A stretch of DNA of 64,000 nt, from NCBI RefSeq assembly GCF_965201005.1, contig NZ_OZ241747.1, forward strand, positions 572,000-635,999, in the 5' to 3' direction. The position numbers were made by a program, and so were the translations under genes. This DNA is from Mucilaginibacter sp. GTDB lineage: Bacteria > Bacteroidota > Bacteroidia > Sphingobacteriales > Sphingobacteriaceae. Of this stretch, positions 6,166 through 58,516 are shown piece after piece (position 1 is the stretch's first letter; each line of letters begins with the position of its first letter). The notes beneath the pieces were generated by a model, which made no database searches, was not told the origin of the DNA, and saw nothing but the letters and a program-made list of their open reading frames with translations.

Positions 6166-6888
6166 ATGAAAAACAAGCAAGTATTCTTCGAGGATTGGGG
6201 CTTAATCGATTACAAAGAAGCCTGGGACAGGCAGGAAGCGATTTTTGCCGCCACCGTAAAACTGAAAACCGAACTGCGCAACCGCGGCGAAAACGATGCT
6301 TCTTTTACAGGCATAAAAACAGTAACGCACAATTATCTGATTTTTTGCGAACACCCGCACGTTTATACGCTGGGCAAAAGCGGCAAAAAAGAACATCTTC
6401 TATTGACCGAAGACCAACTTGCCGAAAAACATGCAGTTTTTTACCCGATCAACCGTGGCGGCGATATTACGTACCACGGGCCGGGGCAGTTGGTGGTTTA
6501 TCCGATTTTAGATTTGGACAACTTTTTTACCGATATCCATTTATATCTGCGCACTTTGGAGGAAGCCGTGATTTTGACTTTGGCTGATTTTGGCATCCCA
6601 GGCGGGCGTTATCCGGGTTATACCGGCGTTTGGCTTGATGCCGATGATCCGCAGAAAGCCCGTAAAATCTGTGCCCTTGGCGTGCGCTGCAGTCGCTGGG
6701 TTACCATGCACGGTTTGGCTTTCAACATCAACCCAAACCTCGGTTATTTTAAAAATATCATCCCCTGCGGGATTGAAGACAAAGCCGTAACCTCAATGGA
6801 GCAGGAACTGGGCAAAAAAGTACCGGTAAAAGAAGCATCAGAAGTTTTGAAACGGCATTTGTACATTTTATTTGGGATGCTGGCATGA
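6166..6888 (+). CDS. lipB: lipoyl(octanoyl) transferase LipB
   Basis: Motifs EHPHVYTLGKSGK, INRGGDITYHGPGQLVVYPILDL and KICALGVR...TMHGLAFNI are present. It contains two repeat-family copies (6295-6326 and 6825-6839). Confidence 0.9.
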   Translation: MKNKQVFFEDWGLIDYKEAWDRQEAIFAATVKLKTELRNRGENDASFTGIKTVTHNYLIFCEHPHVYTLGKSGKKEHLLLTEDQLAEKHAVFYPINRGGDITYHGPGQLVVYPILDLDNFFTDIHLYLRTLEEAVILTLADFGIPGGRYPGYTGVWLDADDPQKARKICALGVRCSRWVTMHGLAFNINPNLGYFKNIIPCGIEDKAVTSMEQELGKKVPVKEASEVLKRHLYILFGMLA

Positions 6889-8679: not shown

Positions 8680-10398
8680 ATGAACACTGAATTACTTGGA
8701 ATCATTGCATCCTTTCTCATCACACTGATTATTGCCGTTCCGTTGGGCAAATACCTGGCAAAAATGTTTGCCGGTGAAAAGGTTTGGACTGATTTTATGA
8801 AACCACTCGAAAATGGTTTGTTCAAAATTTCCGGCATCAACCCGGGCGAGCCAATGAACTGGAAACAGTTTCTGAAAGCCATGATGACCATCAATATTTT
8901 ATGGCTGGTTTACGGCTTTTTTGTGTTGATGAACCAGGATAAACTACCGCTAAACCCGGACGGCAATCCCGGCATGTCGGCAGATTTGGCTTTTAACACC
9001 ATTATCAGCTTCGTGGTAAACTGCAACCTGCAGCATTACTCCGGCGAAAGCGGCGCAACTTATCTCACACAGCATTTCATTTTTATGTTCCTGCATTTTA
9101 CCAGTGCAGCTACCGGTATTGCTGCGGCCGTAGCAGTTTTTAAAGCTTTCCGCGATAAAACTACCACGGATTTGGGCAACTTTTGGAGCTATTTTGTAAA
9201 AACCATTACCCGTTTACTATTGCCGCTTTCTATTGTTATTGCGCTGATTTTGACGTTTAACGGAACGCCCTCAAGTTATGCGGGCAAAGACCGGTTTATA
9301 TCGATGCAAGGCGATACCGTAAATGTTTCCCGCGGACCGGCAGCGCAAATGATCGCTATAAAACATCTTGGCACAAACGGCGGCGGCTGGTTTGGTGCCA
9401 ACTCTGCACATCCGCTCGAAAACCCAAATTACCTGACAAATATGGTCGAAATCGTTTCGCAAATGATTATTCCGATGGCAATGGTTCTGGCTTTTGGCTA
9501 TTTTATCCGCAGGAAAAAATTAAGCCGGATCATTTTTGGCGTAATGATGGCCGGTTTGCTGATGCTTCTTTTACCCGCTATTTTTAGTGAATTGGGTGGA
9601 AATCCATCGATTGCGAAAATGGGCATCAGCCAGAACACCGGCGCAATGGAAGGTAAAGAAGTACGTTTCGGGCCAACCGCAACCGCTTATTGGAGCACGT
9701 TAACTACCATCACGTCAACTGGTTCTGTCAACGGAATGCACGACAGCACCATGCCGCTAACCGGTGCCTGGGAATTATTGGCGATGATGATTAACGCTTT
9801 TTTTGGCGGCTGCGGCGTAGGTATTTTAAATTACCTGATCTACCTGATTATCGCTGTTTTTATTGCCGGATTAATGGTAGGCCGCACACCAGAATTTTTA
9901 GGCCACAAAGTGGAAGCCCGCGAAGTAAAAATTGCCGCTCTGATTACGTTGCTGAGCCCGTTTTTAATTATGGCCGGAACTGCTTTGGCCAGTTATGTTT
10001 TTGTGGCGCACGGCAATGCCAACTGGGCAGTAAAGCCAACGTCCTGGCTCAATAATCCCGGCTTTCATGGCTTTTCGGAAATGCTGTATGAGTTTACTTC
10101 GGCCAATGCCAACAACGGTTCTGGTTTTGAAGGGCTGGGCGATAACAATATCTTCTGGAACGTTTCAACAGGTTTTGTGCTTATCCTCGGCCGCTTCCTG
10201 CCAATCATCGGCCCGGTGGCCATTGCAGGTTTACTGGCACAAAAGAAGTATGTGCCCGAATCTGCCGGAACGCTTAAAATTGATACCGTAACCTTCGGCG
10301 TTATAACGTTTGCCGTTATTATGGTTTTAAATGCCTTGTCGTATTTCCCTGCACTGGCTTTAGGCCCGCTGGCAGAGTATTTCTCTATGCCTAAATAA
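8680..10398 (+). CDS. kdpA: potassium-transporting ATPase subunit A
   Basis: 572-aa polytopic protein with KdpA signatures (NLQHYSGES, LGTNGGG, selectivity-filter-like repeats) in the operon position. Confidence 0.95.
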   Translation: MNTELLGIIASFLITLIIAVPLGKYLAKMFAGEKVWTDFMKPLENGLFKISGINPGEPMNWKQFLKAMMTINILWLVYGFFVLMNQDKLPLNPDGNPGMSADLAFNTIISFVVNCNLQHYSGESGATYLTQHFIFMFLHFTSAATGIAAAVAVFKAFRDKTTTDLGNFWSYFVKTITRLLLPLSIVIALILTFNGTPSSYAGKDRFISMQGDTVNVSRGPAAQMIAIKHLGTNGGGWFGANSAHPLENPNYLTNMVEIVSQMIIPMAMVLAFGYFIRRKKLSRIIFGVMMAGLLMLLLPAIFSELGGNPSIAKMGISQNTGAMEGKEVRFGPTATAYWSTLTTITSTGSVNGMHDSTMPLTGAWELLAMMINAFFGGCGVGILNYLIYLIIAVFIAGLMVGRTPEFLGHKVEAREVKIAALITLLSPFLIMAGTALASYVFVAHGNANWAVKPTSWLNNPGFHGFSEMLYEFTSANANNGSGFEGLGDNNIFWNVSTGFVLILGRFLPIIGPVAIAGLLAQKKYVPESAGTLKIDTVTFGVITFAVIMVLNALSYFPALALGPLAEYFSMPK

Positions 10399-10428
10399 GC
10401 AGCCTTATCCGGCTTTATAAAAATCAAA

Positions 10429-12462
10429 ATGACAACAAAATCCAATAAATTATTTGAACCGGCTTTGGTACAAACTGCCTTAAAAGAGTCGTTTATTAAA
10501 CTAAACCCGCAGGTAATGCTGCGTAATCCGGTGATGTTTACGGTAGAGATCGGAACCGCGGTAATGCTGTTCGTAAGTATTTATAGCTTCGGCCACCGCG
10601 ATCAGGGTACTTTCGGTTACAACTTTGCTATTTTTATCATCCTTTTTTTGACTGTGTTATTTGCCAATTTTGCCGAAGCCATTGCCGAAGCACGCGGTAA
10701 AGCTCAGGCAGATAGTTTGCGTAAAACACGTGAAGAAACACCTGCAAATTTGGTTTCTGCGGATGGTGGCATCACTTCCATTTCATCAAACCAGCTAAAA
10801 AAAGGCGATGTTTTTGTATGTGAAAGTGGCGACACGATACCAACCGACGGCGAAATTATCGAAGGTTTGGCAACGATTGACGAATCGGCCATTACAGGCG
10901 AATCTGCGCCCGTGATCCGAGAATCCGGTGGCGATAAATCTTCCGTGACCGGCGGCACAAAAGTACTTTCAGACAAAATCAAAGTAATCGTGACCACCGA
11001 ACCAGGCGAAAGCTTTTTGGACAAAATGATTGCTTTGGTAGAAGGCGCGTCCAGGCAAAAAACGCCAAACGAAATTGCGCTGACCATTTTGCTGGCCAGT
11101 TTTACGCTGATTTTTATCATCGTTTGTGTAACCTTAAAACCCTTTGCAGATTATGCGCATACGCCAATAACTATCGCCGCTTTGATTTCGCTTTTTGTTT
11201 GTTTGATCCCAACCACAATTGGCGGTTTGTTATCTGCAATTGGTATCGCCGGGATGGACCGCGCATTGCGTGCCAACGTGATCACCAAATCGGGCAAAGC
11301 TGTGGAAACTGCTGGCGATATTGATGTTTTATTGTTGGACAAAACAGGCACTATCACCATCGGTAACCGCAAGGCCACCAACTTTTGGCCGGTAAAAACA
11401 GTATCGCCTGACGAGCTGATCCAGGCTGCCGTGCTTTCTTCGCTGGCAGATGAAACGCCTGAAGGGAAATCTATTATCGAGCTGGCGCAGCAAAGCGGTG
11501 TCCGTTTTTTGCAAACTGCGCCTCAAGGTGCCAATTTTATAAAATTTACTGCCGAAACCCGTTCGAGCGGTATTGATTTGTTAGACGGTTTGCGCATCCG
11601 TAAGGGGGCTTTTGATTCGATCCGAAACCTTTCTGTAAACGCCGGGAACGCTTTTCCGGCGGATGTTGCAGAACGTGTAAAAACGATTTCTTCCAACGGT
11701 GGCACGCCGCTCGTAGTGTCGCAAAACGAAGTGGTTTTAGGTACGATAGAATTGCAGGACATTATCAAAACCGGTATTTCAGAACGTTTTGAACGCCTGC
11801 GGAAAATGGGCATAAAAACAGTAATGGTTACGGGCGATAATCCGCTGACGGCCAAATTTATTGCCGAAAAAGCTGGCGTTGACGATTTTATCGCGGAAGC
11901 AAAACCCGAGGATAAAATGAATTACATCAAACACGAACAGCAAAACGGAAGATTGGTTGCGATGATGGGCGACGGCACTAACGATGCGCCCGCTTTGGCG
12001 CAGGCCGATGTTGGTGTGGCCATGAACAGCGGTACGCAGGCCGCAAAAGAAGCCGGAAATATGGTGGATTTGGACAACGACCCGACCAAACTGATCGAGA
12101 TTGTGGAAATTGGCAAGCAGCTGCTCATCACGCGCGGTACGCTCACTACTTTTTCCATCGCCAACGATGTGGCCAAATACTTTGCCATCGTTCCTGCTTT
12201 GTTTATTGCCTCAATCCCTGCCTTGCAAAGTATTAATATCATGCATTTGCACAGTCCGGAATCAGCCATTTTATCGGCTGTAATTTTCAACGCGATCATT
12301 ATCCCACTTTTGATCCCGCTGGCCTTAAAAGGTGTGGAGTACAAACCGATTGGTGCCAGTGCCCTGCTTCGCCGTAACTTGTTGATTTATGGTTTTGGCG
12401 GAGTGGTTGCCCCTTTTATCGGCATAAAATTAATAGACCTTTTGATTGGTACAATGGTGTAA
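10429..12462 (+). CDS. kdpB: potassium-transporting ATPase subunit B (P-type ATPase)
   Basis: Contains [19 protein letters not shown] and [16 protein letters not shown]. Confidence 0.95.
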
Positions 12463-12468
12463 AGCGCA

Positions 12469-12496
12469 ATGCTTCTTTTATCCCTATAAAATTATT
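12469..12496. repeat. solo ATGCTTCTTTTA-family arm between kdpB and kdpC
   Basis: ATGCTTCTTTTATCCCTATAAAATTATT starts 7 nt after the kdpB stop and ends 4 nt before the kdpC ATG. Confidence 0.8.
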
Positions 12497-12499
12497 ATA

Positions 12500-13066
12500 A
12501 TGAAAAAATATATTCTTCAATCCATCCGGTTAACCTTGGTGCTTACCGTTTTGCTTTGTGTGATCTATCCCGTGTTTATTGCTTACGTTGGCAAACTATC
12601 AAAAGGCCAGGGCAACGGCGAAACCATTACCGTAAACGGAAAAGTGGTTGGCTATGCCAATATCGGCCAAAAGTTTGACAAAGACGGCTATTTCTGGTCG
12701 CGCCCATCGGCTGTTGCTTATAATGCGGCCGGTTCTGGCGGTTCTAACAAAGGCCCTTCCAACCCGGATTATTTGAAAGATGTAGAAGGCCGTATCCAAA
12801 ACTTTTTGAAACACGATCCCGGTGTTAAGCGTGCGCAAATCCCTGCTGATCTGGTTACCGCTTCTGGCAGTGGTTTAGACCCTGATCTTTCTCCGGAAGC
12901 AGTGCAGGTTCAAACGGCACGTATCGCTAAAGCACGAAATTTATCTGTGCAGCAAGTAAGCGAATTGGTCAATCAGCACATCGAAAAACCTTTATTGGGT
13001 TTTTTCGGACCGGCAAAAGTGAATGTTTTAAAGTTAAACGTAGCTTTAGATGCGCTTAAAAAATAA
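12500..13066 (+). CDS. kdpC: potassium-transporting ATPase subunit C
   Basis: MKKYILQSIRLTLVLTVLLCVIYP... plus the VTASGSGLDPDLSPEA motif. The ORF-track start at 12446 would run through the repeat arm, so ATG 12500 is preferred. Confidence 0.9.
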   Translation: MKKYILQSIRLTLVLTVLLCVIYPVFIAYVGKLSKGQGNGETITVNGKVVGYANIGQKFDKDGYFWSRPSAVAYNAAGSGGSNKGPSNPDYLKDVEGRIQNFLKHDPGVKRAQIPADLVTASGSGLDPDLSPEAVQVQTARIAKARNLSVQQVSELVNQHIEKPLLGFFGPAKVNVLKLNVALDALKK

Positions 13067-13121
13067 AAATATAACGGCCACAAATGCTTTATTAAACACA
13101 TGTGGTTTTGATCTGCAAAAA

Positions 13122-14207
13122 ATGAAAAAAATATTGTTAGCTGTTTTTACCGGTCTTTTTTTGTCGGCCGCTGTAAAAGCTCAGGATTCAACACAATCTT
13201 CCGGCAAATTAACCATAAGTGGCTATGCCGAATTGTATTACGGGTACGATTTTAACCGGCCAAAAGATAATAACCGGCCAAATTTTGTTTACTCGCACAA
13301 CCGCCACAATGAAGTAAACCTAAACCTGGGTTTTATCAAAGCAAATTATGATAACGGCACGGTTAGGGCAAACCTGGCATTAATGGCCGGAACGTATGCC
13401 AATGCTAATTTAGCCGCAGAGCCCGGCGTTTTAAAAAATGTTTTTGAAGCAAATGCAGGTTACAAACTTTCTAAAACAAGCAACCTTTGGGTTGATGCCG
13501 GTATTTTTTCTTCGCACATTGGTTTTGAAAGCGCGATCTCTAAAGATTGCTGGGTTTTAACCCGTAACATCTCTTCAGAAAACACACCATATTATGAATC
13601 CGGAGCTAAATTAAGCTATACCACGGCCAATAATAAACTTACTTTAGTGGGTTTGTATTTGAATGGCTGGCAACGCATTTACCGTCAGGCTGGCAACAGT
13701 CAGCCTGCCGGTGGCTTGCAGGTTTTTTATAAACCAGATGATAAAATAACGCTGAATTATAGTAACTATTTAGGAACAGAAGGTGCCGATTCTATCCGCG
13801 TACGTCGTTTTTATAATAATTTTTATGCTATATTTCAGGTAAACAAAGCTTTTGGCTTAACTGCTGGTTTTGATTACGGCATCCAGCAGCAGGCTAAAGG
13901 CAGCAGCAGTTATAACCATGTAATTTCGCCGGTGGCCATTGCTCGTTATCAGTTTACCGATAAATGGGCAATGGCCGGGCGGGTAGAATATTATGAAGAC
14001 AAAACGGGTATTTTTATTGCAACCAATACACCTAACGGTTTTAAAACCACGGGCTATTCTTTAAACCTGGATTATGCACCGGCCACAAATGCCATTATCC
14101 GTTTAGAAGGAAAAGTTTATAACAGTAAAGATGCCATTTTTACAACGCCTGCCGGAACAGCAAACACAAGCCCTTTGCTTACCGCAAGTTTCGCGGTTTC
14201 ATTTTAA
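13122..14207 (+). CDS. kdp-locus outer-membrane porin (beta-barrel)
   Basis: Signal peptide MKKILLAVFTGLFLSAAVKA, an alternating beta-strand pattern and a C-terminal aromatic residue (..SFAVSF). It sits between kdpC and kdpD, as in other Bacteroidota kdp loci. Confidence 0.7.
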   Translation: MKKILLAVFTGLFLSAAVKAQDSTQSSGKLTISGYAELYYGYDFNRPKDNNRPNFVYSHNRHNEVNLNLGFIKANYDNGTVRANLALMAGTYANANLAAEPGVLKNVFEANAGYKLSKTSNLWVDAGIFSSHIGFESAISKDCWVLTRNISSENTPYYESGAKLSYTTANNKLTLVGLYLNGWQRIYRQAGNSQPAGGLQVFYKPDDKITLNYSNYLGTEGADSIRVRRFYNNFYAIFQVNKAFGLTAGFDYGIQQQAKGSSSYNHVISPVAIARYQFTDKWAMAGRVEYYEDKTGIFIATNTPNGFKTTGYSLNLDYAPATNAIIRLEGKVYNSKDAIFTTPAGTANTSPLLTASFAVSF

Positions 14208-14220
14208 GATAAATGTTATG

Positions 14221-14377
14221 GCCTGTTTAAATGTCGTCTGGTTTTTTGCAAATGCTTCTTTTATCGCCTAAAATTTGGTGTTTTTGTGTGAATTTTCAAT
14301 CAGCAACAAATATAAAAAACCAAATTTACAGGCATAAAAGAAGCATTGCAGTTTCTTCAACAGCAGTTTAAACAGGC
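14221..14377. repeat. full nested palindromic element of the ATGCTTCTTTTA family (157 bp)
   Basis: The outer arms are GCCTGTTTAAA (14221-14231) and TTTAAACAGGC (14367-14377), each 20 nt from the core. The core arms are ATGCTTCTTTTATCGCCTAAAATTTGGTG (from 14252) and CCAAATTTACAGGCATAAAAGAAGCAT (to 14346). The centre is variable. Confidence 0.85.
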
Positions 14378-14390
14378 TTTAAATATACCA

Positions 14391-14419
14391 ATGCTTCTTT
14401 TAGCACCTAAAAACAGTAT
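14391..14419. repeat. compact palindrome (A-type arm + B-type arm) abutting the kdpD-N start codon
   Basis: In ATGCTTCTTTTA-GCACC-TAAAAACAGTAT, the final AT of the element plus G14420 form the ATG start at 14418. Confidence 0.8.
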
Positions 14420-15533
14420 GGATACTTCGGTTAGGGATTTTATTGAACTGGTAAAAAAATCAAGGCGCGGCAAATTTAAAATTTACATCGGCATGAGTGC
14501 CGGTGTGGGCAAAACTTACCGTATGCTGCAGGAGGCGCACACGCTTTTGCGCAACGGCATTGATATCCAGATCGGTTATATCGAAACCCACAACCGCGCC
14601 GAAACACATGCCCTGCTGGCCGGTTTGCCCATGATTGTGAAACGCAAGGTTTTTTACAAAGGCAAAGAACTGGAGGAAATGGATTTGCAGGCCATCCTGA
14701 ACCGGCACCCGGAAGTGGTGATTGTGGACGAGCTGGCGCATACCAACATTGAAGGCAGCAAAAACAGCAAGCGCTGGCAGGATGTACTGGACATTTTGGA
14801 AGCAGGCATCAGTGTGATTTCCGCAGTGAACATTCAGCATCTGGAAAGCATCAACGAAGAAGTGGAAACCATTACCGGGATTGCCATTACCGAACGGATC
14901 CCGGACAAAGTGCTGGAACTGACAGACGAAATTGTTAACATTGACTTAACGGCCGATGAACTGATTGACCGGCTGAAAGAAGGCAAAATTTATGACAAAA
15001 GTAAAGTAAACCTGGCACTGCAAAATTTTTTTCAGGCTGATAAGATTTTGCAATTGCGGGAAATGGCTTTAAAAGAAGTGGCGCACCATTTAGAGCGGAA
15101 AATTTCGATCGAAGTCCCGAAACAAATCAAGCTGCGTTCTGAGAAATTTCTGGCCTGCATTTCTTCCAACTCAGAAACGGCAAAAATCGTGATCCGGAAA
15201 ACCGCGCGGCTGGCCTCATATTATCGCTCGCAGTGGATTGTGCTGTACGTGCAAAGCAGTAACGAAAGTTTAGACAAGATCAAACTTGATAAGCAAAGAT
15301 ATCTCATCAACAACTTAAAATTGGCCACAGAACTGGGCGCAGAACTGCTGAAAATCAAAAGCGATGAAATTATGCAAACCATTATGCAGGTGGCCGAAGA
15401 ACGGGAAATTACAACCATTTGCATTGGCAAACCACATTTAAAATTGTTTCAGGTAATATTAAGGACGGGCGCATTTAACGTGCTGCTTAATAAGCTGGCA
15501 GCTACAGAAACTGATTTAGTTATACTATCATGA
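14418..15533 (+). CDS. kdpD: KdpD N-terminal sensor domain + Usp-like domain protein (split KdpD, no kinase core)
   Basis: Contains GKFKIYIGMSAGVGKTYRML (the KdpD P-loop), VIVDELAHTN and AVNIQHLES, followed by a Usp-like C-terminal half. The start is taken at ATG 14418 rather than the track start at 14346. Confidence 0.85.
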   Translation: MDTSVRDFIELVKKSRRGKFKIYIGMSAGVGKTYRMLQEAHTLLRNGIDIQIGYIETHNRAETHALLAGLPMIVKRKVFYKGKELEEMDLQAILNRHPEVVIVDELAHTNIEGSKNSKRWQDVLDILEAGISVISAVNIQHLESINEEVETITGIAITERIPDKVLELTDEIVNIDLTADELIDRLKEGKIYDKSKVNLALQNFFQADKILQLREMALKEVAHHLERKISIEVPKQIKLRSEKFLACISSNSETAKIVIRKTARLASYYRSQWIVLYVQSSNESLDKIKLDKQRYLINNLKLATELGAELLKIKSDEIMQTIMQVAEEREITTICIGKPHLKLFQVILRTGAFNVLLNKLAATETDLVILS

Positions 15534-17287
15534 AAGTAAAAAATAAACTCCGCTTAGGGTTCGGCTTTTTGTTTATCGTTGTGCTCTTTTTTGGCACCGT
15601 TTCCATCTTCTACATCAACGAAATCTCAAACAGTGCAAAAGTTATTTTAAAAGACAACTACGAAACTTTAAACTTTGCACGGGAAATGCGTATGGTTTTA
15701 GATGAAAATACTTTGCCGCTCAATACCGCTTCGCAGGCATCTTTTGACCGGCAGCTGGCAAAGGAGGAAAATAACATTACCGAAACCGGCGAGCAGGCCG
15801 CAGTAAAAAGTTTGCGTACTGCTTTTACCGTTTTACAAAATACGGCTTTGCCCATGGAACAGCAGCTGCAGGCCGAAAAAAATGCCCGAAGGAATTTGCG
15901 CAAAATTGAAATCCTGAACATGCAGGCAATTGTCCGCAAAAACGATCAGGCACAGGCTTCTGTTAAAAAAGCCACGTTGTTTTTAGGTTTGGCCGGCACC
16001 TTTACGTTTTTGGTGCTGTTCAGTTTCAGCGTTAACTTTCCCGGATTTATCTCCAACCCTTTAAATACTTTGCTGGAAGGCATCAGGGAAATTGGCCGGA
16101 AAAACTACAGCCAGCGTGTTCATTTTGAAAAGCAGGACGAGTTTGCGGAAGTAGGCCGTGCTTTTAATGATATGGCAGCCCGGCTGAACGAATGGGAAAA
16201 CAGCAATTTGTCCAAAATTATGTCGGAAAAGCTGCGGATAGAAACCATTATAGAGCAAATGCACGATGCAATTATCGGGATTAACGAAAAACAGGAAGTG
16301 CTGTTTATTAACTCCGCAGCAAAAATTTTATTAAACCTGAATGAGCAAAGTTTGGCAGGAAAATCTGTTGATGCCATTACAAAAAGTAACGATCTGTTCA
16401 GTTCGATCATCAAAGAGACTAAAGCAGGAAAGCCGTTTAAAATTGTGGAGAATGGGAAAGATGCTTATTTTCAGCTGGAAGTGAGGGAGATTTCGGTCCC
16501 GAATATCGAACCTAACAGGAGTGAAACGATATCTATCTCACATCATTCGGCCGGAAAAGTATATGTTTTGCGCAACATCACAGAGTTTAAAGAAAGGGAC
16601 GAGGCAAAAACCAATTTTATCGCCACTATTTCGCACGAACTGAAAACGCCTATCTCTTCCATGAAATTAAGCCTGAAGCTTTTGGCAGACAGCAGGATTG
16701 GCGGATTGAACCCGGAGCAGGAACAATTGGTGCTTCACCTTAACGAAGATGCAGAACGCCTGCTCAAAATCACGTACGAACTTTTAGACCTTTCGCAGGT
16801 GGAAACTGGTAATATCCAATTAAATTTTGTACCAACGCGGCCAGAACAGATCATAGAATATGCAGTCAAAGCGATCAGTTTTGAAGCTGAACAAAAAAAG
16901 GTAACGATTGAACAATCTGTTGATTTAAAGCTGCCCAATGTGCAGGTTGATGTTGAAAAAACAGCCTGGGTGATGATCAATTTTCTTTCCAATGCTTTAC
17001 GCTACAGCCCGTCGGGGTCTAAAATCATCGTTCAGGTTTCACAGAAAATGCAAATGGTCGAATTTGCTGTAAAAGACTTTGGAAAAGGGATTGACACGCA
17101 GTATTTAGAACGTTTGTTTGACCGCTATTTCCAGGTGCCAACGGACGGGCAAAATAAATCTGGCTCGGGGCTGGGGCTGGCAATTTCTAAAGAGTTTATT
17201 GCCGCACAGGATGGCCGGATTGGTGTAGAAAGTGAAATTGGCGCAGGCAGCCGGTTTTATTTTCAGCTGCCGGTAATGGTTGCTTAA
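15530..17287 (+). CDS. HAMP/PAS sensor histidine kinase (kinase half of the kdp two-component sensor)
   Basis: Has two TM segments, a HAMP region, a PAS-like region, the H-box FIATISHELKTP and the G-box GSGLGLAISKEF. It overlaps the preceding gene by 4 nt. Confidence 0.85.
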   Translation: MKVKNKLRLGFGFLFIVVLFFGTVSIFYINEISNSAKVILKDNYETLNFAREMRMVLDENTLPLNTASQASFDRQLAKEENNITETGEQAAVKSLRTAFTVLQNTALPMEQQLQAEKNARRNLRKIEILNMQAIVRKNDQAQASVKKATLFLGLAGTFTFLVLFSFSVNFPGFISNPLNTLLEGIREIGRKNYSQRVHFEKQDEFAEVGRAFNDMAARLNEWENSNLSKIMSEKLRIETIIEQMHDAIIGINEKQEVLFINSAAKILLNLNEQSLAGKSVDAITKSNDLFSSIIKETKAGKPFKIVENGKDAYFQLEVREISVPNIEPNRSETISISHHSAGKVYVLRNITEFKERDEAKTNFIATISHELKTPISSMKLSLKLLADSRIGGLNPEQEQLVLHLNEDAERLLKITYELLDLSQVETGNIQLNFVPTRPEQIIEYAVKAISFEAEQKKVTIEQSVDLKLPNVQVDVEKTAWVMINFLSNALRYSPSGSKIIVQVSQKMQMVEFAVKDFGKGIDTQYLERLFDRYFQVPTDGQNKSGSGLGLAISKEFIAAQDGRIGVESEIGAGSRFYFQLPVMVA

Positions 17288-17323
17288 ATGGAAAGATTTT
17301 GCGTGTCGGGTTTATATGGTGCG

Positions 17324-17347
17324 ATGCTTCTTTTATCACCTAAAAAT
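17324..17347. repeat. solo ATGCTTCTTTTA-family arm at the 3' end of sdaA
   Basis: ATGCTTCTTTTATCACCTAAAAAT ends at the sdaA stop codon (complement of 17347-17349). Confidence 0.8.
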
Positions 17348-18774
17348 CAGCAATCAGGAATTGAAATCGGGATTTGTATCGCCAGGCCGCCATCCGCAGT
17401 TTCCTTGTATTTCGAGTTCATGTCCTGCGCGGTTTCCCACATCGTTTTTACCACGGCATCCAAGCTCACGCGTGCATTGTCCGGGTTGGATTGCAAGGCT
17501 AATTGCGATGCTGTGATCGCTTTGATCGCGCCCATCGTATTGCGCTCGATACAAGGCACTTGTACCAATCCGCCAATTGGGTCGCAGGTCATGCCCAGAT
17601 GATGTTCCATGGCAATTTCCGCAGCCATTAAAACCTGGCGTTGCGATCCGCCCAAAACTTCGGTTAAACCTGCCGCGGCCATGGCGGAGGAAACACCGAT
17701 TTCTGCCTGGCAGCCGCCCATCGCTGCCGAAATGGTAGAACCTTTTTTAAAAATACTGCCGATCTCCGAAGCCGTCAGCAAAAACCTGATAATCTGATCG
17801 ATACTGTTTTTATCACAGAAAATCAGGGCATAATGCAACACAGCCGGGATTACGCCTGCCGCGCCGTTGGTTGGTGCCGTAACCACCCGGCCAAACGAAG
17901 CGTTCTCTTCATTTACGGCCAAAGCAAAGCAGCTCACCCAATCCAAAATATACTGAAAACTGCTGCTTTTTTGTTTGATGGCCGCAACCCAGCTTTCGTA
18001 ATCCCGGTATTCTGCATCGCCCAAAAGCCTTTTGTTGCTGCGTGCCGCCCGCCGTGCCACGTTCAATCCGCCGGGCAAATAGCCGGAAGTGTGGCAGCCA
18101 CGGTACAAACATGTTTTCATCACTTCAAAAATCTGTAAAATACCGGTTTGGGTGGCTTCTTCGGATCGCCAGGCCAGTTCGTTTTCCATCACCACGTCGG
18201 AAATTTTCAGGCCGGTTTTCAAACACCAGTGCAGCAAATCATTGGCGGTATCAACCGGGAAGGGCAAATCAACTTCTGTTTTTGCTGCGGATTGTCCGTT
18301 TTCTTTCACTACAAAACCACCGCCGATAGAATAATACGTTTCTGAAATTGCTTTTCCATCTGCCAGAAAAGCCTGAAACGTAACCGCATTCGGGTGAAAA
18401 GGCAAACTGTTGTTCATCAAAAAAAGCAAATCATGGCCGATACTGAAACCAATGCTGTTTTTACCACCTAAATTTAGTTGTTGGTTGATGGCAATGCTTT
18501 CGATTTTTGGCTCGATCTGATCCACCGGAAACGTAACGGGATCATCTCCGCTTAAACCTAATAAAACGGCAATGTCCGTTCCGTGGCCTTTCCCGGTTTT
18601 GGCCAGCGAACCATACAGCAGGATTTTGATCTGTATAACTGATTCCATCAAATTGGCATCCTCCAGCAAAACCACAAACTGCTGCGCCGCCCGCCACGGC
18701 CCCAAAGTATGCGAACTGGACGGCCCGATACCGATTTTAAACATATCAAAAACAGAAATCTGCTCTTTTTGCAT
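17347..18774 (-). CDS. sdaA: L-serine ammonia-lyase (single-chain, iron-sulfur dependent)
   Basis: Starts [20 protein letters not shown] and contains [16 protein letters not shown] and C.ERN. It carries two B-type repeat copies (17801 and 18452). Confidence 0.9.
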
Positions 18775-19001: not shown

Positions 19002-19092
19002 ATGCTTCTTTTATCGCCTAAAAAACTGTGAAGACAGGTTTGCTGCTTTAGATAAATACAAACCACCAAATTTATAGTGCTAAAAGAAGCAT
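19002..19092. repeat. ATGCTTCTTTTA-family palindromic element (L...R, 91 bp)
   Basis: The arms are ATGCTTCTTTTATCGCCTAAAAAACTG... and ...AAACCACCAAATTTATAGTGCTAAAAGAAGCAT. Degenerate outer arms sit at about 18970 and about 19108. Confidence 0.85.
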
Positions 19093-27268: not shown

Positions 27269-29104
27269 ATGAAATTTAGAAGGTTACGCCGCAGATTTAA
27301 AAAATTACGCCGTAAAAAATGGTTCAAAAGGCTGGTTTTGCCTTTGTTTGTGCTGCTGTTTTTTACGCTGATAATTGCGCTGGCCATCAATATTTACTTC
27401 TCGCCGGTTTTGTCCAATCAGCTAAAAAAAACGGTTTTTAAGTGGGGAAACGGTTTGTATCAGATTGATTTTGAGAGAAGTAGCCTGCATGTGTTGGCCG
27501 GCCGCATTGTGATCGATCACCTCAGCCTGAAACCCGACACGGCTGTTTTTGACCGGCTAAAAAAAGCAGGCAAAGCACCAAATAATCTGTACACGCTTTC
27601 GGTTGACAGGATAGTTTTTAAACATATCCATCCGTTTAAACTGTATTTTAAAAAGGAGTTTGAGGTAGATGAAATTTCCGTCAGCAAACCAAATGTGCAG
27701 GTTTTTTACCAAGATCTGCACCAGCCGGAACGCATCAAAAACGATCCGAAAACGATTTACCAGGAAATTGCAGGCACGCTGAAATCGATCCATGTTGGCC
27801 GGATTTTGGCGGATAACATCAGTTTGCGTTATCAGGAAAAAACCGCTGGCGGGACACGCATCCGGCATCTGCAGAAAATCAACCTGAAAGCAAGCGATTT
27901 TCTGATTGATCAAAGCAGCCAGTTGGATCAAAAACGTTTTAATTTTTGCCGGGACATTACCGCTTCCATCAGCGATTATGCACTGCAGACTGAAAACCAT
28001 CAGCATGAATTTACGGCCAAATCAGTCACGTTTTCCAGTTCAAAAGCAAGCGTGAAACTAATTGATGCTGTTTTTATGCCGGTAAAAACAGCATCGCCAA
28101 CGCCAGATCAGCGGCGGCGCGAACTGCAGATGGAAAGTGATTCGGTGTGTATCAATCACTTTGATTATCAGCAATTTATTTCAAACAGAAAAATAAAAGC
28201 TTCGGATGTAACCGTTTTTGGCCGAAAAATAAGCTTCTTTTATAACCGAAATTTGCCCCGCCCTGAAAAACCTGCGGGTGCGGCCAAAACCGGTTTGTAC
28301 AAACTATTGAAAAGCGTGCATCGGGACATCAACATCCAAACCATCAATTTTAAAAACGTGGAAGTGGTTTATGCAGAGATCAGTGCCAAAACCAAGCTGC
28401 TCGGCGTGATAACTTTTGAAAACTTGAACGGTTCCATCAGCAATTTCCTTACCGGAAACGATCCGCTGCAGGCCAACCGCAACATAACGGCCAGTTTAAC
28501 GGCCAACTTGATGGGTTACGGCAAACTGAACGCCAATTTGCAGTTTGATGCGGCCAGCCCGGCCAATATTTTATATTATAAAGGCAGTTTGGGCGTGATG
28601 AACTTAGTGAACCTGAACAACGCCACCAAGCCGCTTGGCCTGATCCAGTTTACCAATGGGATTGTGACCAGTTTGGATTTTGATATGCAGGCCGATGCAC
28701 AAAAAGCCATCGGAAAAGTTACCTTTTTGTATAATGATCTGAATGTAATTTTGCTTAAGCAGGACGAGAAAAATGGCTTGCACCGCATGTCGTTTATGTC
28801 GATTTTGGCCAATGCTTTTGTGCTGATCCGCGATAACCCACGCCAGAATGCTGCCGCAAGGGTTGCAGATGTGGTTTATTTGCGGCCGGAAAACACATCT
28901 TATCTGGGTTTGATCTGGCGTTCGGTTTATGCCGGGATCAAAGAATCGATTGGTTTATCCGCGGAAGTTGAGCAAAAACTGCGGCAAAAAGTGGTTGATT
29001 ACAAGCAGAACAAAGAAATACGCAATCAAAAAAAAGCCGGCCGGCAGGAGCGGAGGCGGTTGCGCCGCTTAAAAAGAAACCTAAAAGAAGCACAGGATGA
29101 TTAA
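27269..29104 (+). CDS. membrane-anchored hypothetical protein (basic N-terminus + single TM; possibly AsmA/DUF748-like)
   Basis: Starts MKFRRLRRRFKKLRRKKWFKRLVLPLFVLLFFTLIIALAINIY and has a basic C-terminal tail. The ORF-track start at 27218 is TTG, so ATG 27269 is preferred. The family call is weak. Confidence 0.6.
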   Translation: MKFRRLRRRFKKLRRKKWFKRLVLPLFVLLFFTLIIALAINIYFSPVLSNQLKKTVFKWGNGLYQIDFERSSLHVLAGRIVIDHLSLKPDTAVFDRLKKAGKAPNNLYTLSVDRIVFKHIHPFKLYFKKEFEVDEISVSKPNVQVFYQDLHQPERIKNDPKTIYQEIAGTLKSIHVGRILADNISLRYQEKTAGGTRIRHLQKINLKASDFLIDQSSQLDQKRFNFCRDITASISDYALQTENHQHEFTAKSVTFSSSKASVKLIDAVFMPVKTASPTPDQRRRELQMESDSVCINHFDYQQFISNRKIKASDVTVFGRKISFFYNRNLPRPEKPAGAAKTGLYKLLKSVHRDINIQTINFKNVEVVYAEISAKTKLLGVITFENLNGSISNFLTGNDPLQANRNITASLTANLMGYGKLNANLQFDAASPANILYYKGSLGVMNLVNLNNATKPLGLIQFTNGIVTSLDFDMQADAQKAIGKVTFLYNDLNVILLKQDEKNGLHRMSFMSILANAFVLIRDNPRQNAAARVADVVYLRPENTSYLGLIWRSVYAGIKESIGLSAEVEQKLRQKVVDYKQNKEIRNQKKAGRQERRRLRRLKRNLKEAQDD

Positions 29105-29121
29105 CCGATGCTTCTTTTAGG
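29080..29121 (+). terminator. repeat-family hairpin (R...L) enclosing the stop codon of 27269..29104
   Basis: CCTAAAAGAAGCA-16 nt-TGCTTCTTTTAGG is a 13-bp stem. The TAA stop (29102-29104) lies in the loop, and TATGCTTTTTTG follows the stem. Confidence 0.65.
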
Positions 29122-32964: not shown

Positions 32965-32993
32965 ACTATATCAGCTTGTTCAAATTAGTTTCT

Positions 32994-33085
32994 ATGCTTC
33001 TTTTATCACCTAAAAAACAAAATTTATTATCTTTTGAGATAATCATTAACCTGAAAGAACAAAAATACTGGCATAAAAGAAGCAT
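32994..33085. repeat. ATGCTTCTTTTA-family palindromic element (L...R, 92 bp)
   Basis: The arms are ATGCTTCTTTTATCACCTAAAAAAC... and ...ACTGGCATAAAAGAAGCAT. An outer-arm-like CTTAAACAGGC sits 21 nt downstream (33107-33117). Confidence 0.85.
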
Positions 33086-33203
33086 TACAACTCTATCTAG
33101 TATAAACTTAAACAGGCCATCAGTATAGTTGCAAGTGTTTGTGGTTAAGCGGTAAAACTTTTCAGGCTAAAAAACCTTAATTTGCAGCATCAACATAAAT
33201 TTT

Positions 33204-34021: not shown

Positions 34022-34067
34022 GATGCTTCTTTTAGCAGGTAAATTTTAAGGCGATAAAAGAAGCATC
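34022..34067. repeat. minimal ATGCTTCTTTTA-family element (46 bp) just after the stop of 34071..35381
   Basis: The sequence is GATGCTTCTTTTAGCAGGTAAATTTTAAGGCGATAAAAGAAGCATC. It probably acts as the 3' hairpin of the minus-strand gene. Confidence 0.85.
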
Positions 34068-35943: not shown

Positions 35944-36040
35944 GGTGCTTCTTTTAGCACCAAGAAATTAGTGTTTGCGGCTTGCCCCTTTATCTAAGCA
36001 AACAATGCCGGGCCATTTTTTTAGGTGCTAAAAGAAGCAT
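35944..36040. repeat. ATGCTTCTTTTA-family palindromic element (L...R, 97 bp)
   Basis: The arms are GGTGCTTCTTTTAGCACC... and ...GGTGCTAAAAGAAGCAT, with 16 bp complementary. Confidence 0.85.
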
Positions 36041-36155
36041 CATAAGTTTAATAAAATATGGACAGGTGCCTGTAAAAAAAGTGTTTATTATTATAAATAT
36101 TATTAAATAAACTGTGGTTTAAGGGCCGGGTTAAATTTCTAACGATCAATTTACA

Positions 36156-36249
36156 ATGCTTCTTTTATATCCATAAATTTTGCTTTTGTATTTGTTGCAG
36201 ATTGAAAAATCCCTAAAAACCACCAAAAGTTAGGTGATAAAAGAAGCAT
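36156..36249. repeat. ATGCTTCTTTTA-family palindromic element (L...R, 94 bp)
   Basis: The arms are ATGCTTCTTTTATATCCATAAATTTT... and ...AAACCACCAAAAGTTAGGTGATAAAAGAAGCAT. An outer-arm-like GCCGGGTTAAA sits 20 nt upstream (36125-36135). Confidence 0.85.
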
Positions 36250-36445
36250 ATAAAAACTTTAAAACGGAATTTGAACACGCCCAAAATATATATGATTTTC
36301 AAAAAAATGCTTATTTATAGTATTTGATAAATCAATATAATCACTATTTTTAACATTTTAAAAACCTGAATAATATTTAATTTGCAGCAGATTTTTTACG
36401 TAACCTAAAAATGACTTTTTTAATATTTTTTCCCGGCTTAGGTTT

Positions 36446-40872: not shown

Positions 40873-40964
40873 ATGCTTCTTTTATCCGGTTAAAATTAGT
40901 GGTTATACTTAGTATTTTTGAAAAGGGCAAAAGTTCACTGTTTTTTGTACAATAAAAGAAGCAT
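40873..40964. repeat. ATGCTTCTTTTA-family palindromic element (L...R, 92 bp)
   Basis: The arms are ATGCTTCTTTTATCCGGTTAAAATTAGTGG... and ...GTACAATAAAAGAAGCAT. Confidence 0.85.
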
Positions 40965-41018
40965 GAAAATATTGAAAGTAAGGTTGATGGCCTGTTTAAA
41001 TTTTATCAAATGGCTTTC

Positions 41019-41101
41019 ATGCTTCTTTTATCACCTAAAATTTGGTGGTTTGCCGATAGTATTAATTACCAAAACAAAATTTACAGGCATAAAAGAAGCA
41101 T
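41019..41101. repeat. ATGCTTCTTTTA-family palindromic element (L...R, 83 bp), near-consensus copy
   Basis: The arms are ATGCTTCTTTTATCACCTAAAATTTGGTGGTTT... and ...AAAATTTACAGGCATAAAAGAAGCAT. An outer arm GCCTGTTTAAA sits at 40990-41000. Confidence 0.9.
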
Positions 41102-44425: not shown

Positions 44426-44499
44426 ATGCTTCTTTTATCACCCTAAATTTGGTCTTTTATATAGATTTTTCAGTAAAATTTATGGCATAAAAGAAGCAT
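44426..44499. repeat. ATGCTTCTTTTA-family palindromic element (L...R, 74 bp)
   Basis: The arms are ATGCTTCTTTTATCACCCTAAATTTGGTC... and ...AAAATTTATGGCATAAAAGAAGCAT. An outer arm TTTAAACAGGC starts exactly 20 nt downstream (44520-44530). Confidence 0.9.
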
Positions 44500-44554
44500 G
44501 GTAAACTTGCCGACAAAGCTTTAAACAGGCTCTTGTTTTCGGAAATGTTGGATG

Positions 44555-50678: not shown

Positions 50679-50746
50679 CAAATTTAGGTTGATAAAAGAA
50701 GCATTGGATATATAATTGATACGATGCTTCTTTTATCAACTATTTT
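50679..50746. terminator. repeat-family hairpin (R...L) acting as a bidirectional terminator between convergent genes
   Basis: GTTGATAAAAGAAGCAT-19 nt-ATGCTTCTTTTATCAAC is a 17-bp stem flanked by T-rich tracts on both strands. It begins 1 nt after the + gene stop, and the last stem base is the first base of the minus-gene stop-codon complement (50740-50742). Confidence 0.75.
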
Positions 50747-52726: not shown

Positions 52727-55700
52727 ATGTTGGGATTTATCAGTAAGCTTTTCGGTAATAAATCGGAGCGGGACGTTAAAGGCGTGCAGCCTTTGGTAGA
52801 AAAAATAAAGGCAGAATTTGCCAAGCTGGAGCAGATCAGTAATGATGAGTTGCGCGCAAAAACCATCGATTTCAAAGCCCGGATCAGTGCAGGCTTAGAA
52901 AAAACCGATGCCGAAATCAAAGCCGCAAAAGAGGAAGCAGAAAACGATTCTTCTATCGAAGTAAACCGCAAAGTGGAACTTTACGGTGAAATTGATAAGC
53001 TGGAAAAAGACCGCAACAAAGAGCTTGAAGTTATTTTGATGGAGATTTTGCCGGAAGCTTTTGCCGTGGTAAAAGAAACAGCGCGCCGCCTGGCCAATAA
53101 TAAAACGCTGGAAGTTACGGCCACAGATTTCGATCGGGAACTGGCAGCTCATAAAAAGAACGTTTTGATTTCGGGCGATAAAGCCATTCACCACAACTCC
53201 TGGCTGGCTGCCGGAAACGAAGTAACGTGGAACATGGTACATTATGATGTGCAGCTGATTGGCGGTATCGTTTTGCACGAAGGAAAAATTGCCGAAATGG
53301 CAACAGGTGAAGGTAAAACGCTGGTGGCAACATTACCTGCTTACCTGAATGCCCTGGCCGGGCAAGGCGTGCACATCGTTACCGTGAATGATTATCTGGC
53401 CCGTCGGGACAGTGAATGGATGGGCCCATTGTATGAGTTTCATGGCTTGTCGGTAGATTGTATAGATCGCCATGAGCCAAACTCCGAAGAACGCAGAAAT
53501 GCTTATTTAGCAGATATTACCTTTGGCACCAACAACGAATTTGGTTTTGATTACCTGCGTGACAACATGACACGCAGCCCTGAAGAACTGGTACAGCGCA
53601 AACTGCATTACGCGATGGTGGATGAGGTGGATTCGGTTTTAATTGATGACGCCCGTACGCCGCTGATAATTTCTGGGCCGGTTCCGCGTGGTGATGAGCA
53701 TGAGTTTTATGATTTGAAACCACGTATTGAACGTTTGGTAAACGTACAGAAAGCGTACATAACCACCAAGCTGAATGAAGCCAAAAAGCAAATTGCGGAA
53801 GGAAAATCCGGTGTGGATGAAGGCGGTTTGGCATTGTTGCGGGCACATCGCGGTTTACCAAAAAACAAAGCTTTGATCAAGTTTTTGAGCGAGCAGAACA
53901 TCAAACCGGTGCTCAACAAAACCGAAAACTATTACATGCAGGATCAGAATAAAGAAATGCCCAAAGTGGATGAGGAGCTTTATTTTGTAATTGATGAAAA
54001 AAACAACTCGGTAGAACTGACCGAAAAAGGGATTGAACTGATCACCACTTCCGGTGAAGATCCGCACTTTTTTGTAATGCCGGACGTGGGTACGGAAGTT
54101 GCCGAAATTGAAAAATCAAGTTTTTCTGCAGAAGAAAAAGTAGCTAAAAAAGATGAGTTGATGCGCGATTTTTCCATCAAATCAGAACGTATCCATTCTG
54201 TAAACCAGTTGCTTAAAGCTTATACTTTGTTTGAGCGCGATACCGAATACATTTTGGATGATGGAAAAGTAAAGATCGTGGATGAGCAAACCGGCCGTGT
54301 TTTAGATGGCCGTCGTTATTCTGATGGTTTGCACCAGGCTATTGAAGCCAAAGAAAATGTGAAGGTGGAAGATGCCTCGCAAACTTTTGCAACAGTTACG
54401 CTGCAAAACTATTTTAGAATGTATCACAAATTGTGCGGTATGACGGGTACAGCAGTTACCGAAGCCGGTGAATTCTGGGAAATATACAAGCTGGACGTGG
54501 TAGAAATACCGACCAATACACCTGCAAGCCGTGCTGATCGTCAGGATTTGGTTTACCGGACCATGCGCGAAAAATACAATGCCGTTGCCGATGAAATTGT
54601 AACGTTAACGCAAGCTGGCCGACCGGTTTTGGTGGGTACAACTTCCGTAGAAATATCTGAATTATTAAGCCGGATGTTGAAATTGCGTGGCATTAAACAT
54701 AACGTTTTGAACGCCAAAATGCACCAGAAAGAAGCGGATATTGTTGCTGAAGCCGGTAAAACCGGAACCGTAACCATTGCCACCAATATGGCTGGCCGTG
54801 GTACAGATATTAAGCTGGGCGAAGGAGTAAAAGATGCCGGTGGTTTGGCCATTGTGGGCACAGAACGCCATGAATCCCGCCGGGTTGACCGGCAGTTGCG
54901 CGGTCGTTCCGGTCGTCAGGGTGATCCGGGTTCTTCGCAGTTTTTCGTTTCGCTGGAAGATGATCTGATGCGTTTGTTCGGTTCCGAACGGATTTCGGGA
55001 CTGATGGTAAAAATGGGCATTGAGGATGGTGAAGTAATCCAGCATTCCATGATCACCAAATCTATCGAACGCGCACAGAAAAAAGTAGAAGAGAACAACT
55101 TTGGCATCCGTAAACGTTTGCTGGAGTATGATGACGTGATGAACTCGCAGCGTACCGTTATCTACACGCGCCGTAAAAATGCGTTGTTTGGCGAACGGCT
55201 GGATGTTGATTTGAACAATACCATTTTTGATGTAACAGAAGATGTGGTAACCGAGTTTAAAGACGCCAACAACTATGAAGGTTTTCAGTTGGAGATGATC
55301 CGTTTGTTTTCAGTTGATACAGCAATTACAGCCGAAGATTTTACCGCTAAAAACAGTATGGCATTGGTTGAAACGGCTTTCCACGAGATTACGGATTTTT
55401 ATAAACGCAAATCAGAGGCGATTGCCAAACAGGCTTATCCAGTTTTGAAAGATGTTTATGATACGCGCGGCAACATGATCGAAAACATTATTGTGCCTTT
55501 TACAGATGGTGTTCATGGCATTCAAGTTGCTGTCCCGTTGCAAAAAGCAGTGGAAAACAATGGTCAGGAAGTATTGAAATCCTTCGAGAAAAACGTGGTT
55601 TTGACCTTTATTGATGATGCCTGGAAAGAACATTTGCGCGAAATGGACGAGCTGAAGCAATCAGTACAAAACGCCGTTTACGAGCAGAAAGACCCGTTGC

Positions 55701-57690: not shown

Positions 57691-57693
57691 GCC

Positions 57694-57720
57694 GATACTG
57701 TTTTTATCGGTATAAATTTG
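57694..57720. repeat. solo B-type arm directly after the M20 stop
   Basis: The sequence is GATACTGTTTTTATCGGTATAAATTTG. Confidence 0.8.
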
Positions 57721-57819
57721 TCCCGTCGTTTTATCTTTTTTATGGAAGGAAGAAACCCTCATTAAATTTCAACATCTAAATAAAATTTCCCCCTTTGCAT
57801 AAAGATCAAAAATTAAAAT

Positions 57820-58248: not shown

Positions 58249-58516
58249 AATTGTTATTTTTAAAAAGTTTGAATAGTTACTTGTAAAATTGGGTACAACG
58301 ATCATTCAATTATATTGCTGACTTGGAACTTCTCAACTGCTGGTTTGGGTTTTATTATTCTAAACTTCATGCGGCAAATCCTCCGCAGAAAGTTTAAAAA
58401 ATACACACTCAAAATAATATCAATATAATCTTCCAATAAGTTGATAAAGTAAAACAGAAGAACTAAGCTAATAGGATCAATCAGCATGATAAATTACTTT
58501 ATATTAGATAGTTAAG

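Follow-up and report, generated by a model that had tools for sequence, protein, structure and literature searches.

The subject of this analysis is a 64-kb window of Mucilaginibacter sp. DNA (the whole stretch of 64,000 nucleotides from contig NZ_OZ241747.1) and, within it, a palindromic element at 14219–14379 in the kdp operon. The genes of the window are Bacteroidota housekeeping genes, including those for the long-form SecA, a split KdpD, and GroEL, and its SecA, at 83–86% amino-acid identity to those of named species, places the window in Mucilaginibacter. In the kdp operon (8680–17287), a BBP2-type porin gene is located between kdpC and the split sensor, which consists of a KdpD-like non-kinase protein and a separate histidine kinase. 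The loci L201, L202, and L203 have the same layout, which appears to be ordinary for the group. A preliminary description of the window had read the element and its relatives as intergenic palindromes of three nested tiers around a variable centre. We find two layers instead: a miniature inverted-repeat transposable element (MITE), and a 12-base word that forms its subterminal arms and recurs throughout one Mucilaginibacter sub-clade, inside genes as well as between them. Our confidence in this anatomy is high, both in the MITE and in a word that is specific to one clade, spread genome-wide, and created by substitution; what the word may do is discussed more tentatively.

The transposable element

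The outer arms first noticed in the element, GCCTGTTTAAA at 14221–14231 and its reverse complement at 14367–14377, are correctly placed. The core arms ATGCTTCTTTTAT (14252–14264) and ATAAAAGAAGCAT (14334–14346) each lie 20 nt inside them, as claimed, and the spacings of 18–21 nt given for the outer arms of the remaining copies were confirmed in the sequence. When the copies are aligned across loci, the outer arms become part of a terminal inverted repeat with the consensus G-R-GCCTGTTTAAATTT, which is present at both ends of a MITE of roughly 157 bp, whose family ranges over about 155–177 bp. The outer arm and the core are genuinely linked, just as the preliminary description had supposed. In 713 kb of DNA from the sub-clade (hereafter called “clade DNA”), 63 of the 79 exact copies of GCCTGTTTAAA are followed on the same strand by a core 18–23 nt downstream, and another 10 by a core at 39–44 nt, so that 73 of 79 have it at a fixed distance. 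The 39–44 nt class arises because an extra segment of about 20 nt, containing CAAGATCCTTCGGTATGCTCAGGATTGATG, lies to the left of the core.

The ends of the family also bear the mark of transposition. Immediately outside the terminal repeats, the 3-bp flanks of 26 of 52 elements are identical, as compared to the 9 expected from the flank composition (P = 7e-8), and flank identity at other offsets is found in only 0–3 elements. The duplications are mostly TTA or TAA, with CAA, ACA, TTG, ATA, and TGA also represented. The copy at 14219–14379 is flanked by TTA (14216–14218) and TAA (14380–14382) at the position of the duplication, with one base different.

The preliminary description had considered the centres too dissimilar for a classical MITE, and had named conserved interiors as the sign of an ordinary one. 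In the window the centres are indeed mostly dissimilar, with one exception: the 14252 and 36156 elements have centres that agree at 23 of 25 positions when one is inverted. The related genomes, however, share one interior: about 18 of the 32 full elements have the same centre with differing flanks. In addition, a duplicated segment in L114 provides one paralogous empty site for the MITE. A search for further empty sites with joined flanks returned mostly nested or adjacent MITEs, and none besides the site in L114; the kdp spacers of L201 and L202 lack the MITE, in loci too diverged to define the exact junction. The terminal repeats, the 3-bp duplication, the empty site, and the conserved interiors in the sister genomes together overturn the earlier view. 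Judged by these sequence features, the element at 14219–14379 is an ordinary, undescribed MITE, a non-autonomous DNA transposon, and the copies in the window are old and diverged. An autonomous partner with the same terminal repeats was not found in 2.8 Mb of fetched loci, and the terminal repeat is absent from the loci outside the clade.

The family resembles the Correia element (CREE) and the NIME/dRS3 repeats, of Neisseria, which are about 100–160 bp long, end in inverted repeats, duplicate a short stretch of the target, occur in hundreds of intergenic copies, and affect termination and transcript ends; the short, conserved inverted repeats of NIME flank variable segments. In contrast, the Correia element duplicates TA and carries no DNA uptake sequence (DUS), whereas the present family duplicates 3 bp (TWA) and has the host's word as its subterminal arms.

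Two subfamilies stand apart from the common form of the MITE. The one with the CAAGATCCTTCGGTATGCTCAGGATTGATG segment between the left terminal repeat and the core is present in L098, L106, L112, L116, L117, L135, L139, L143, and L145. The other, in L085, L118, and L153, has a third, internal word in its centre (..TTTTATACCGATAAAAGAAGCAT..). Separately, the search for the partner element turned up only a repeat of the form GGCTAAAGCC...CCACGGCCTGAAGGCCGTGGCAA, unrelated to the word family, which adjoins a core-less copy of GCCTGTTTAAA in L094 (about 9930–10130) and L100 (about 1350–1550).

A 12-base word in genes and between them

The core of the subterminal arms is the 12-mer ATGCTTCTTTTA (form A), and a k-mer census revealed a sister word, ATRCTGTTTTTA (form B). 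Allowing one mismatch, the window contains 60 copies of form A and 42 of form B on both strands. About 25 of the form A copies lie within genes, as do most of the form B copies. These numbers greatly exceed chance: the form A 13-mer with up to two mismatches occurs 71 times, as compared to 4.1 expected, and exact form B 26 times, as compared to 0.07. The palindromes of the preliminary description are therefore real, but its picture of an intergenic family was too narrow, since 55 of the 102 core copies are in coding sequence and many stand singly. The two forms have the same downstream extension, with C at +13 and an A/T run from about +18 to +24. In form A the core is followed by YCRCC and then by the A/T run; among intergenic copies, the extension has the consensus tCACCTAAAATTTGGTG. 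Core positions 6–7 are bimodal across 1.13 Mb of clade DNA, with TC in 765 copies and GT in 209, and the intermediate combinations are rare, at 35 copies for TT and 22 for GC.

Among the Bacteroidota sampled, the word is essentially confined to the clade. The two main forms (TC and GT) together occur 974 times in the 1.13 Mb of clade DNA and once in 1.64 Mb outside it, a set of 79 other Bacteroidota secA loci that includes about 15 Mucilaginibacter species. Throughout the sub-clade the density is 1 to 1.6 words per kb, equally on both strands, with a mean gap of 0.69 kb between words. Among the 617 exact words in 713 kb, 150 are coding; the chance expectation of about 0.3 for these is a uniform-composition estimate, and the outgroup count is the cleaner control. 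The sister contig L001, which is 97% identical to the window in protein and 86% in DNA, has the same word density. Several contigs and proteins, namely L001 and the proteins P0011, P0016, P0033, and P0035, are labelled “MAG: Janthinobacterium lividum” (a metagenome-assembled genome), yet they are clearly Mucilaginibacter-like, with a SecA that is 97% identical to that of the window and a kdp porin of the Bacteroidota type, and appear to be mis-binned in the source assemblies.

Integrated mobile DNA also lacks the word. At 9.8 kb, the longest stretch without it (L167 3079–12846) is low in G+C and encodes a tyrosine integrase, a D5_N/DUF5906 primase-helicase, and a DUF6965 protein. The third-longest (6.9 kb, L152 3479–10411) is likewise low in G+C and encodes an IS1595 transposase and a macro-domain protein. 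Both are probably integrated mobile elements. A scan of viral contigs for the word with its extension yielded no matches. Dialects of the word in related species were considered and rejected: the most repeated 10-mers in other Mucilaginibacter loci occur in local tandem arrays or in clusters between genes rather than as dispersed words.

How does the word come to lie in genes? In secA, it occupies a part of the gene where the protein is variable, and alignment with 16 orthologues that lack it shows neither insertion nor deletion. Of the 15 coding copies that could be compared, 12 are gapless against every word-less orthologue; the three exceptions comprise one 1-residue gap and two copies in N-terminal signal-peptide regions. 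In kdpA and kdpB, three clade genomes have both shared and lineage-specific words at aligned codons, and M. galii has non-word codons at each of these sites, such as ATGCTGATGATA where the window has ATGCTTCTTTTA. As judged from these alignments, the words in genes arise by point substitution, without insertions or deletions, at permissive codons, and then persist. The words are also more conserved than the sequence around them: 114 of 120 core positions are identical, as compared to 85.6% elsewhere (P = 9e-4), and in a second comparison all 36 of 36 are identical at an overall identity of 79% (P = 2e-4).

The coding words are divided roughly equally between the sense (67) and antisense (83) strands, and the orientation of words within loci has no polarity (P = 0.2). 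Moreover, the reading-frame usage of the coding words is biased, with avoidance of those frames in which a word would introduce a stop codon. The lack of polarity, the near equality of the strands, and the frame pattern argue that the word is recognised as duplex DNA rather than as RNA. Because orientation within loci is not polar, we also discarded a strand-polar motif such as Chi or KOPS. The Bacteroidota promoter, compared by eye, does not account for the word either: only some extensions match the −7 box TAnnTTTG, no −33 TTTG lies at the right distance, and the coding copies face both ways, which is a further reason to reject it. The word also does not fit the DnaA-box, IHF, or sigma-54 consensus, compared in the same manner.

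Is the word simply a part of the MITE? A terminal repeat lies upstream of about 25% of the intergenic form A copies, but of 0 of 256 form B copies and only 3 of 191 coding form A copies. About 75% of the intergenic words and essentially all of the coding words are thus outside any recognisable MITE. In addition, the reversed pairs at 29082–29119, 50693–50735, and 56069–56111 have spacers of 14–19 nt, which leave no room for terminal repeats. The word belongs to the host genome and is not explained by the MITE.

The paired elements fold much better than shuffled sequence (z = −4 to −9.5), in agreement with the folding check that had been proposed. In contrast, single copies do not fold (17310–17370, z = +1.5), and in the MITE consensus the left and right extensions beyond the core differ from each other and would not pair; single-strand structure is therefore unlikely to be the constraint. 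The third, self-folding tier CACC-N8-GGTG, which had been given for consensus copies, is found in only 19 of 394 intergenic copies and so is not general. The earlier suggestion that the arms are kept through structure or protein recognition thus survives in one part, as a constraint on the core at the level of DNA that is independent of the element.

At the ends of genes the pairs take a particular form. Reversed pairs directly past stop codons have stems of 14–20 bp followed by T runs, and 84% of the convergent intergenic regions contain the word. The region past the kdp porin gene differs between lineages: M. galii carries a conventional GC-rich hairpin and T run there, L201 and L202 carry reversed pairs of the word, and the window carries the MITE. 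Past secA, at the place where the clade has a word pair, outgroup loci show other GC-rich palindromes. The inverted pairs at gene ends look like transcription terminators, as predicted from their folds, and termination is probably a secondary use of the pairs rather than the reason that the word exists. A generic scan for sigma-70 promoters and terminators performed no better than on shuffled sequence, with an 8-nt loop limit that misses the word pairs.

Possible functions of the word

To our knowledge, DUS and the uptake signal sequences (USS) are known only from the Neisseriaceae and Pasteurellaceae, and they are the only case known to us in which a gene-exchange mechanism has written a long word thousands of times across a genome, coding sequence included. 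The likeness to the present word is extensive. Both consist of a word of 9–12 bp with a weaker, A/T-rich flank, and occur about once per kb on both strands. Their genic copies lie at permissive sites, arise by substitution, and have a frame bias with stop codons avoided, and their intergenic copies often form inverted pairs, which lie in terminators in DUS and USS and in predicted terminators here. Both are lineage-specific, with variant dialects, and missing from integrated mobile DNA. The published hallmarks of uptake sequences include copies both within and between genes, inverted pairs in terminators, biased reading frames, location at permissive sites, and dialects (bioRxiv 10.1101/2025.10.24.684340), and we favour a DUS/USS-like reading because the anatomy fits them. 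Within the Bacteroidota, Riemerella columbina prefers its own DNA in transformation, with no motif defined (PMC7965970). Our literature search returned no description of the word, of uptake sequences in the Bacteroidota, or of such repeats in Mucilaginibacter.

Taken as a whole, our reading is of a MITE whose arms are a previously undescribed self word, DUS/USS-like, of one lineage of the Bacteroidota; in our estimation, it has a little under an even chance of being correct. A function of the word in biased DNA uptake or transfer, which is suggested by analogy, is to be held more cautiously. The fullest version is more tentative still: the Mucilaginibacter sub-clade may have evolved a true self signal for uptake or transfer, which would be the first beyond the Proteobacteria and would use two discrete dialects, ATGCTTCTTTTA and ATRCTGTTTTTA, side by side in one genome, and a resident MITE may have captured two copies and now spread by the biased exchange of its host.

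The proposed mechanism has several parts. A transposase acting in trans presumably mobilises the MITE, and the 3-bp TWA duplication suggests an enzyme of the IS5 type. The word would be recognised as double-stranded DNA and serve as a self tag that biases uptake or transfer between cells. Mutations that create a word would then be preferentially spread and fixed, in a form of molecular drive, within the limits that protein-coding constraint would set on the placement of words. Inverted pairs past the ends of genes would be recruited as terminator hairpins, and the MITE, with one word 20 nt inside each end, would hitch-hike on the same transfer bias.

The present system also differs from DUS and USS. 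It is found in a soil or freshwater Bacteroidota rather than in a host-associated Proteobacterium, its sequence is unrelated, and its role in uptake is a prediction. Two discrete forms coexist within one genome, at about 3.7 to 1, and there is a much stronger intergenic excess and a MITE with two words. Several points weigh against the uptake reading. The coexistence of two discrete forms with rare intermediates is not what a single uptake receptor predicts. The intergenic density of words is about 14 times the coding density, a large excess that stems partly from amplification of the MITE. In the metagenome contigs with the word and its extension (76–79% identical to the window in DNA where they overlap), the density of 0.73 exact words per kb is biased upward, as these loci were selected for containing the word, and the gene calls throughout are crude open reading frame (ORF) calls. 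Natural competence is not reported in the literature for Mucilaginibacter, and no competence genes are present among the genes of the 64-kb window. Furthermore, an identical footprint would be expected if selection favoured sites bound by an abundant protein of the host.

Under this last possibility, an abundant DNA-binding protein of the host (a nucleoid-associated, architectural, termination, or replication factor) would bind at the word, selection for binding would keep about 1 site per kb, and the MITE would use the same factor for its transposition complex, much as the Correia element and IS10 use IHF. Several features accord with it: recognition appears strand-symmetric and duplex-like, the A/T runs of the extension are about one helical turn apart and would favour bending, the word has a fixed place near either end of the MITE, 20 nt inward of the terminal repeat, orthologous sites are conserved, and words are enriched at gene ends. 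However, we know of no architectural protein that imposes a 12-bp site of >20 bits in coding sequence at such a density. The close relatives have the same core proteome without the word, which would be odd for an essential function of the chromosome, and the lineage-specific gain and loss of sites fits drive better than a position-specific function. We consider this explanation unlikely, though one to be taken seriously.

A repair bias in the style of the cyanobacterial HIP1 word (GCGATCGC) would dispense with the transfer step: a clade-specific repair or modification system of the very-short-patch type would turn near-matches into the word. HIP1 is likewise a hyper-abundant word of its lineage, genic and intergenic, conserved at orthologous positions, and unproven in function. 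Such a bias would account for the accumulation of point substitutions at pre-existing near-matches, the clade specificity, the two discrete preferred forms with rare intermediates, and the presence of the word in both coding and intergenic DNA. Nevertheless, known repair biases concern words of 4–8 bp tied to methyltransferase sites, and HIP1 itself is a palindromic octamer linked to such sites, whereas the present word is a non-palindromic 12-mer with a weaker extension of 10–12 nt and a strong enrichment at gene ends. No such enzyme is in view, and the 14-fold intergenic excess and the pairing at gene ends are left unexplained by a repair bias, which we regard as improbable.

The reading of the preliminary description is a structured RNA or single-stranded DNA element whose three nested stems form the functional unit, with arms conserved for folding around a free centre, and which would serve as terminator, small RNA, or recombination site. 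It draws on the very stable predicted hairpins, their location past gene ends, and the kdp locus, where an ordinary terminator has been replaced. It is very improbable in view of the preceding results: most copies are single and unfolded, half of those in the window are genic and in both orientations, the third tier occurs in only 5% of copies, the outer tier is the end of a transposon with a target duplication, and the covariance models of Rfam gave no match in the window at the gathering score.

The least probable explanation is that all copies are debris of the MITE or of a repetitive extragenic palindromic (REP)-like element mobilised by a RAYT- or DDE-type transposase, the single copies being decayed halves and the coding copies old in-frame insertions: the MITE features are genuine, form A dominates intergenic DNA, and many intergenic pairs without terminal repeats could be decayed copies, but the gapless coding copies were not inserted, which largely refutes it for them, and the near absence of terminal repeats from form B and coding form A copies, the short spacers of the reversed pairs, and the lack of any transposase among the window genes speak against it as well.

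Two known families are instructive here. REPs of enterobacteria and Pseudomonas, and the mosaic elements (BIMEs) that they form, resemble the present repeats as short, imperfect palindromes in alternating orientation past genes, with variable or mosaic spacers, and REPs are bound by IHF and gyrase. They are strictly extragenic, in contrast to the coding copies described above, and the present repeats have no GTAG-type 5′ tetranucleotide and instead have true terminal repeats with a target duplication. No RAYT (Y1 transposase) gene is present among the window genes. The Rickettsia palindromic elements (RPE) likewise form a palindromic repeat family in both intergenic and coding DNA, but they are in-frame insertions of 100–150 bp, whereas the coding copies here are 12–30 bp without insertions or deletions.

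The restriction of uptake sequences to two proteobacterial families limits the tests of how they evolve, such as drive versus selection, the origin of the receptor, and isolation by dialect. If the DUS/USS-like reading is correct, a third, independent case in a soil Bacteroidota genus would serve as a natural replicate. Close relatives such as M. galii have no copy of the word, and two forms occur within one genome. In practice, the results provide a phylogenetic contrast for finding the recognition protein, a sequence for uptake assays, a possible handle for Mucilaginibacter genetics, and a marker that distinguishes resident from acquired DNA. If the word is a host-protein site instead, a 12-bp site about once per kb within genes would itself be unprecedented. 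The MITE alone is ordinary, whereas a transposon that carries the self word of its host would be an unusual arrangement.

Features of the window and further observations

Table 1. Coordinates of the MITE, its relatives, and representative words in the window
Feature	Position	Strand	Remarks
Full MITE copy	14219–14379		Based on terminal repeats, flanks, and family alignment; fold −47.4 kcal/mol, z = −6.9
Left terminal inverted repeat TGGCCTGTTTAAATGT	14219–14234	+	Contains the left outer arm; family consensus G-R-GCCTGTTTAAATTT
Right terminal inverted repeat	14364–14379	−	Contains the right outer arm
Left subterminal word, form A core ATGCTTCTTTTA with extension TCGCCTAAAATTTGGTG	14252–14280	+	
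Right subterminal word, form A core with extension TGCCTGTAAATTTGGTT	14318–14346	−	
Variable centre	14281–14317		Homologous to the centre of the 36156–36249 element, 23/25, inverted
Compact A/B hybrid palindrome ATGCTTCTTTTA-GCACC-TAAAAACAGTAT	14391–14419		Last three bases are the ATG (14417–14419) of the KdpD-like gene
MITE copy, left repeat degenerate	32972–33119		Core pair 32994–33085; right terminal repeat 33107–33119
MITE copy, terminal repeats degenerate	36123–36282		Core pair 36156–36249
MITE copy, left terminal repeat only (40988–41003)	40988–41101		Core pair 41019–41101
MITE copy, right terminal repeat only (44520–44532)	44426–44532		Core pair 44426–44499; between convergent genes
Inverted core pair without recognisable terminal repeat	40873–40964		
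Further inverted core pairs without recognisable terminal repeat	425–539, 19002–19092, 35945–36040, 62283–62375		Compact form at 34023–34066
Reversed pair TAAAAGAAGCAT-N19-ATGCTTCTTTTA, then T run	50693–50735		Predicted bidirectional terminator between convergent genes; −27.7 kcal/mol, z = −7.9
Reversed pair, predicted terminator	56069–56111		34 nt past the secA stop codon; conserved in L001
Reversed pair, predicted terminator	29082–29119		Spans the stop codon of gene 27269–29104
Perfect 12+6+12 form B palindrome within coding sequence	28065–28094		
Compact palindrome, form A paired with form B; resembles 28065–28094	6296–6325		In lipB-like gene
Palindrome resembling 28065–28094	60295–60324		In GNAT gene
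Single form B word in secA	55348–55359	−	No indel relative to 16 orthologues without the word
Single form A word in kdpA	9562–9573	+	Outgroup has ATGCTGATGATA at the same codons
Single form B word in kdpB	11393–11404	−	Gained by substitution, in the window's lineage only
Word ATRCTKYTTTTA, at most one mismatch	1–64000		102 copies, 1.6/kb; 47 intergenic, 55 coding

A 1.4-kb segment of the window (57691–59094) is absent from L001. It contains two small minus-strand ORFs (57820–58305 and 58517–58822) of unknown function, with no Pfam match, and has at its two boundaries form B words that point the same way (57695 and 59060). The shared site, just past a stop codon, is form A in L001 and form B in the window.

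A GC-rich palindromic element at 60518–60625 (AACACACCCCTAACCCCTCTCAAGAGGGG ... CCCCTCTTGAGAGGGGTTAGGGGTGTGTT) lies in a 141-bp spacer, which is lacking in L001, where the two genes abut. CCCTCCC/GGGAGGG palindromes that resemble it are located downstream of secA in other Mucilaginibacter. The element looks like a member of a second, unrelated REP-like or MITE-like family. Finally, the centre of the 425–539 element (449–480) contains a direct 16-nt duplication, GCAGGTTCAAGCAG-GG-GCAGGTTCAAGCAG.

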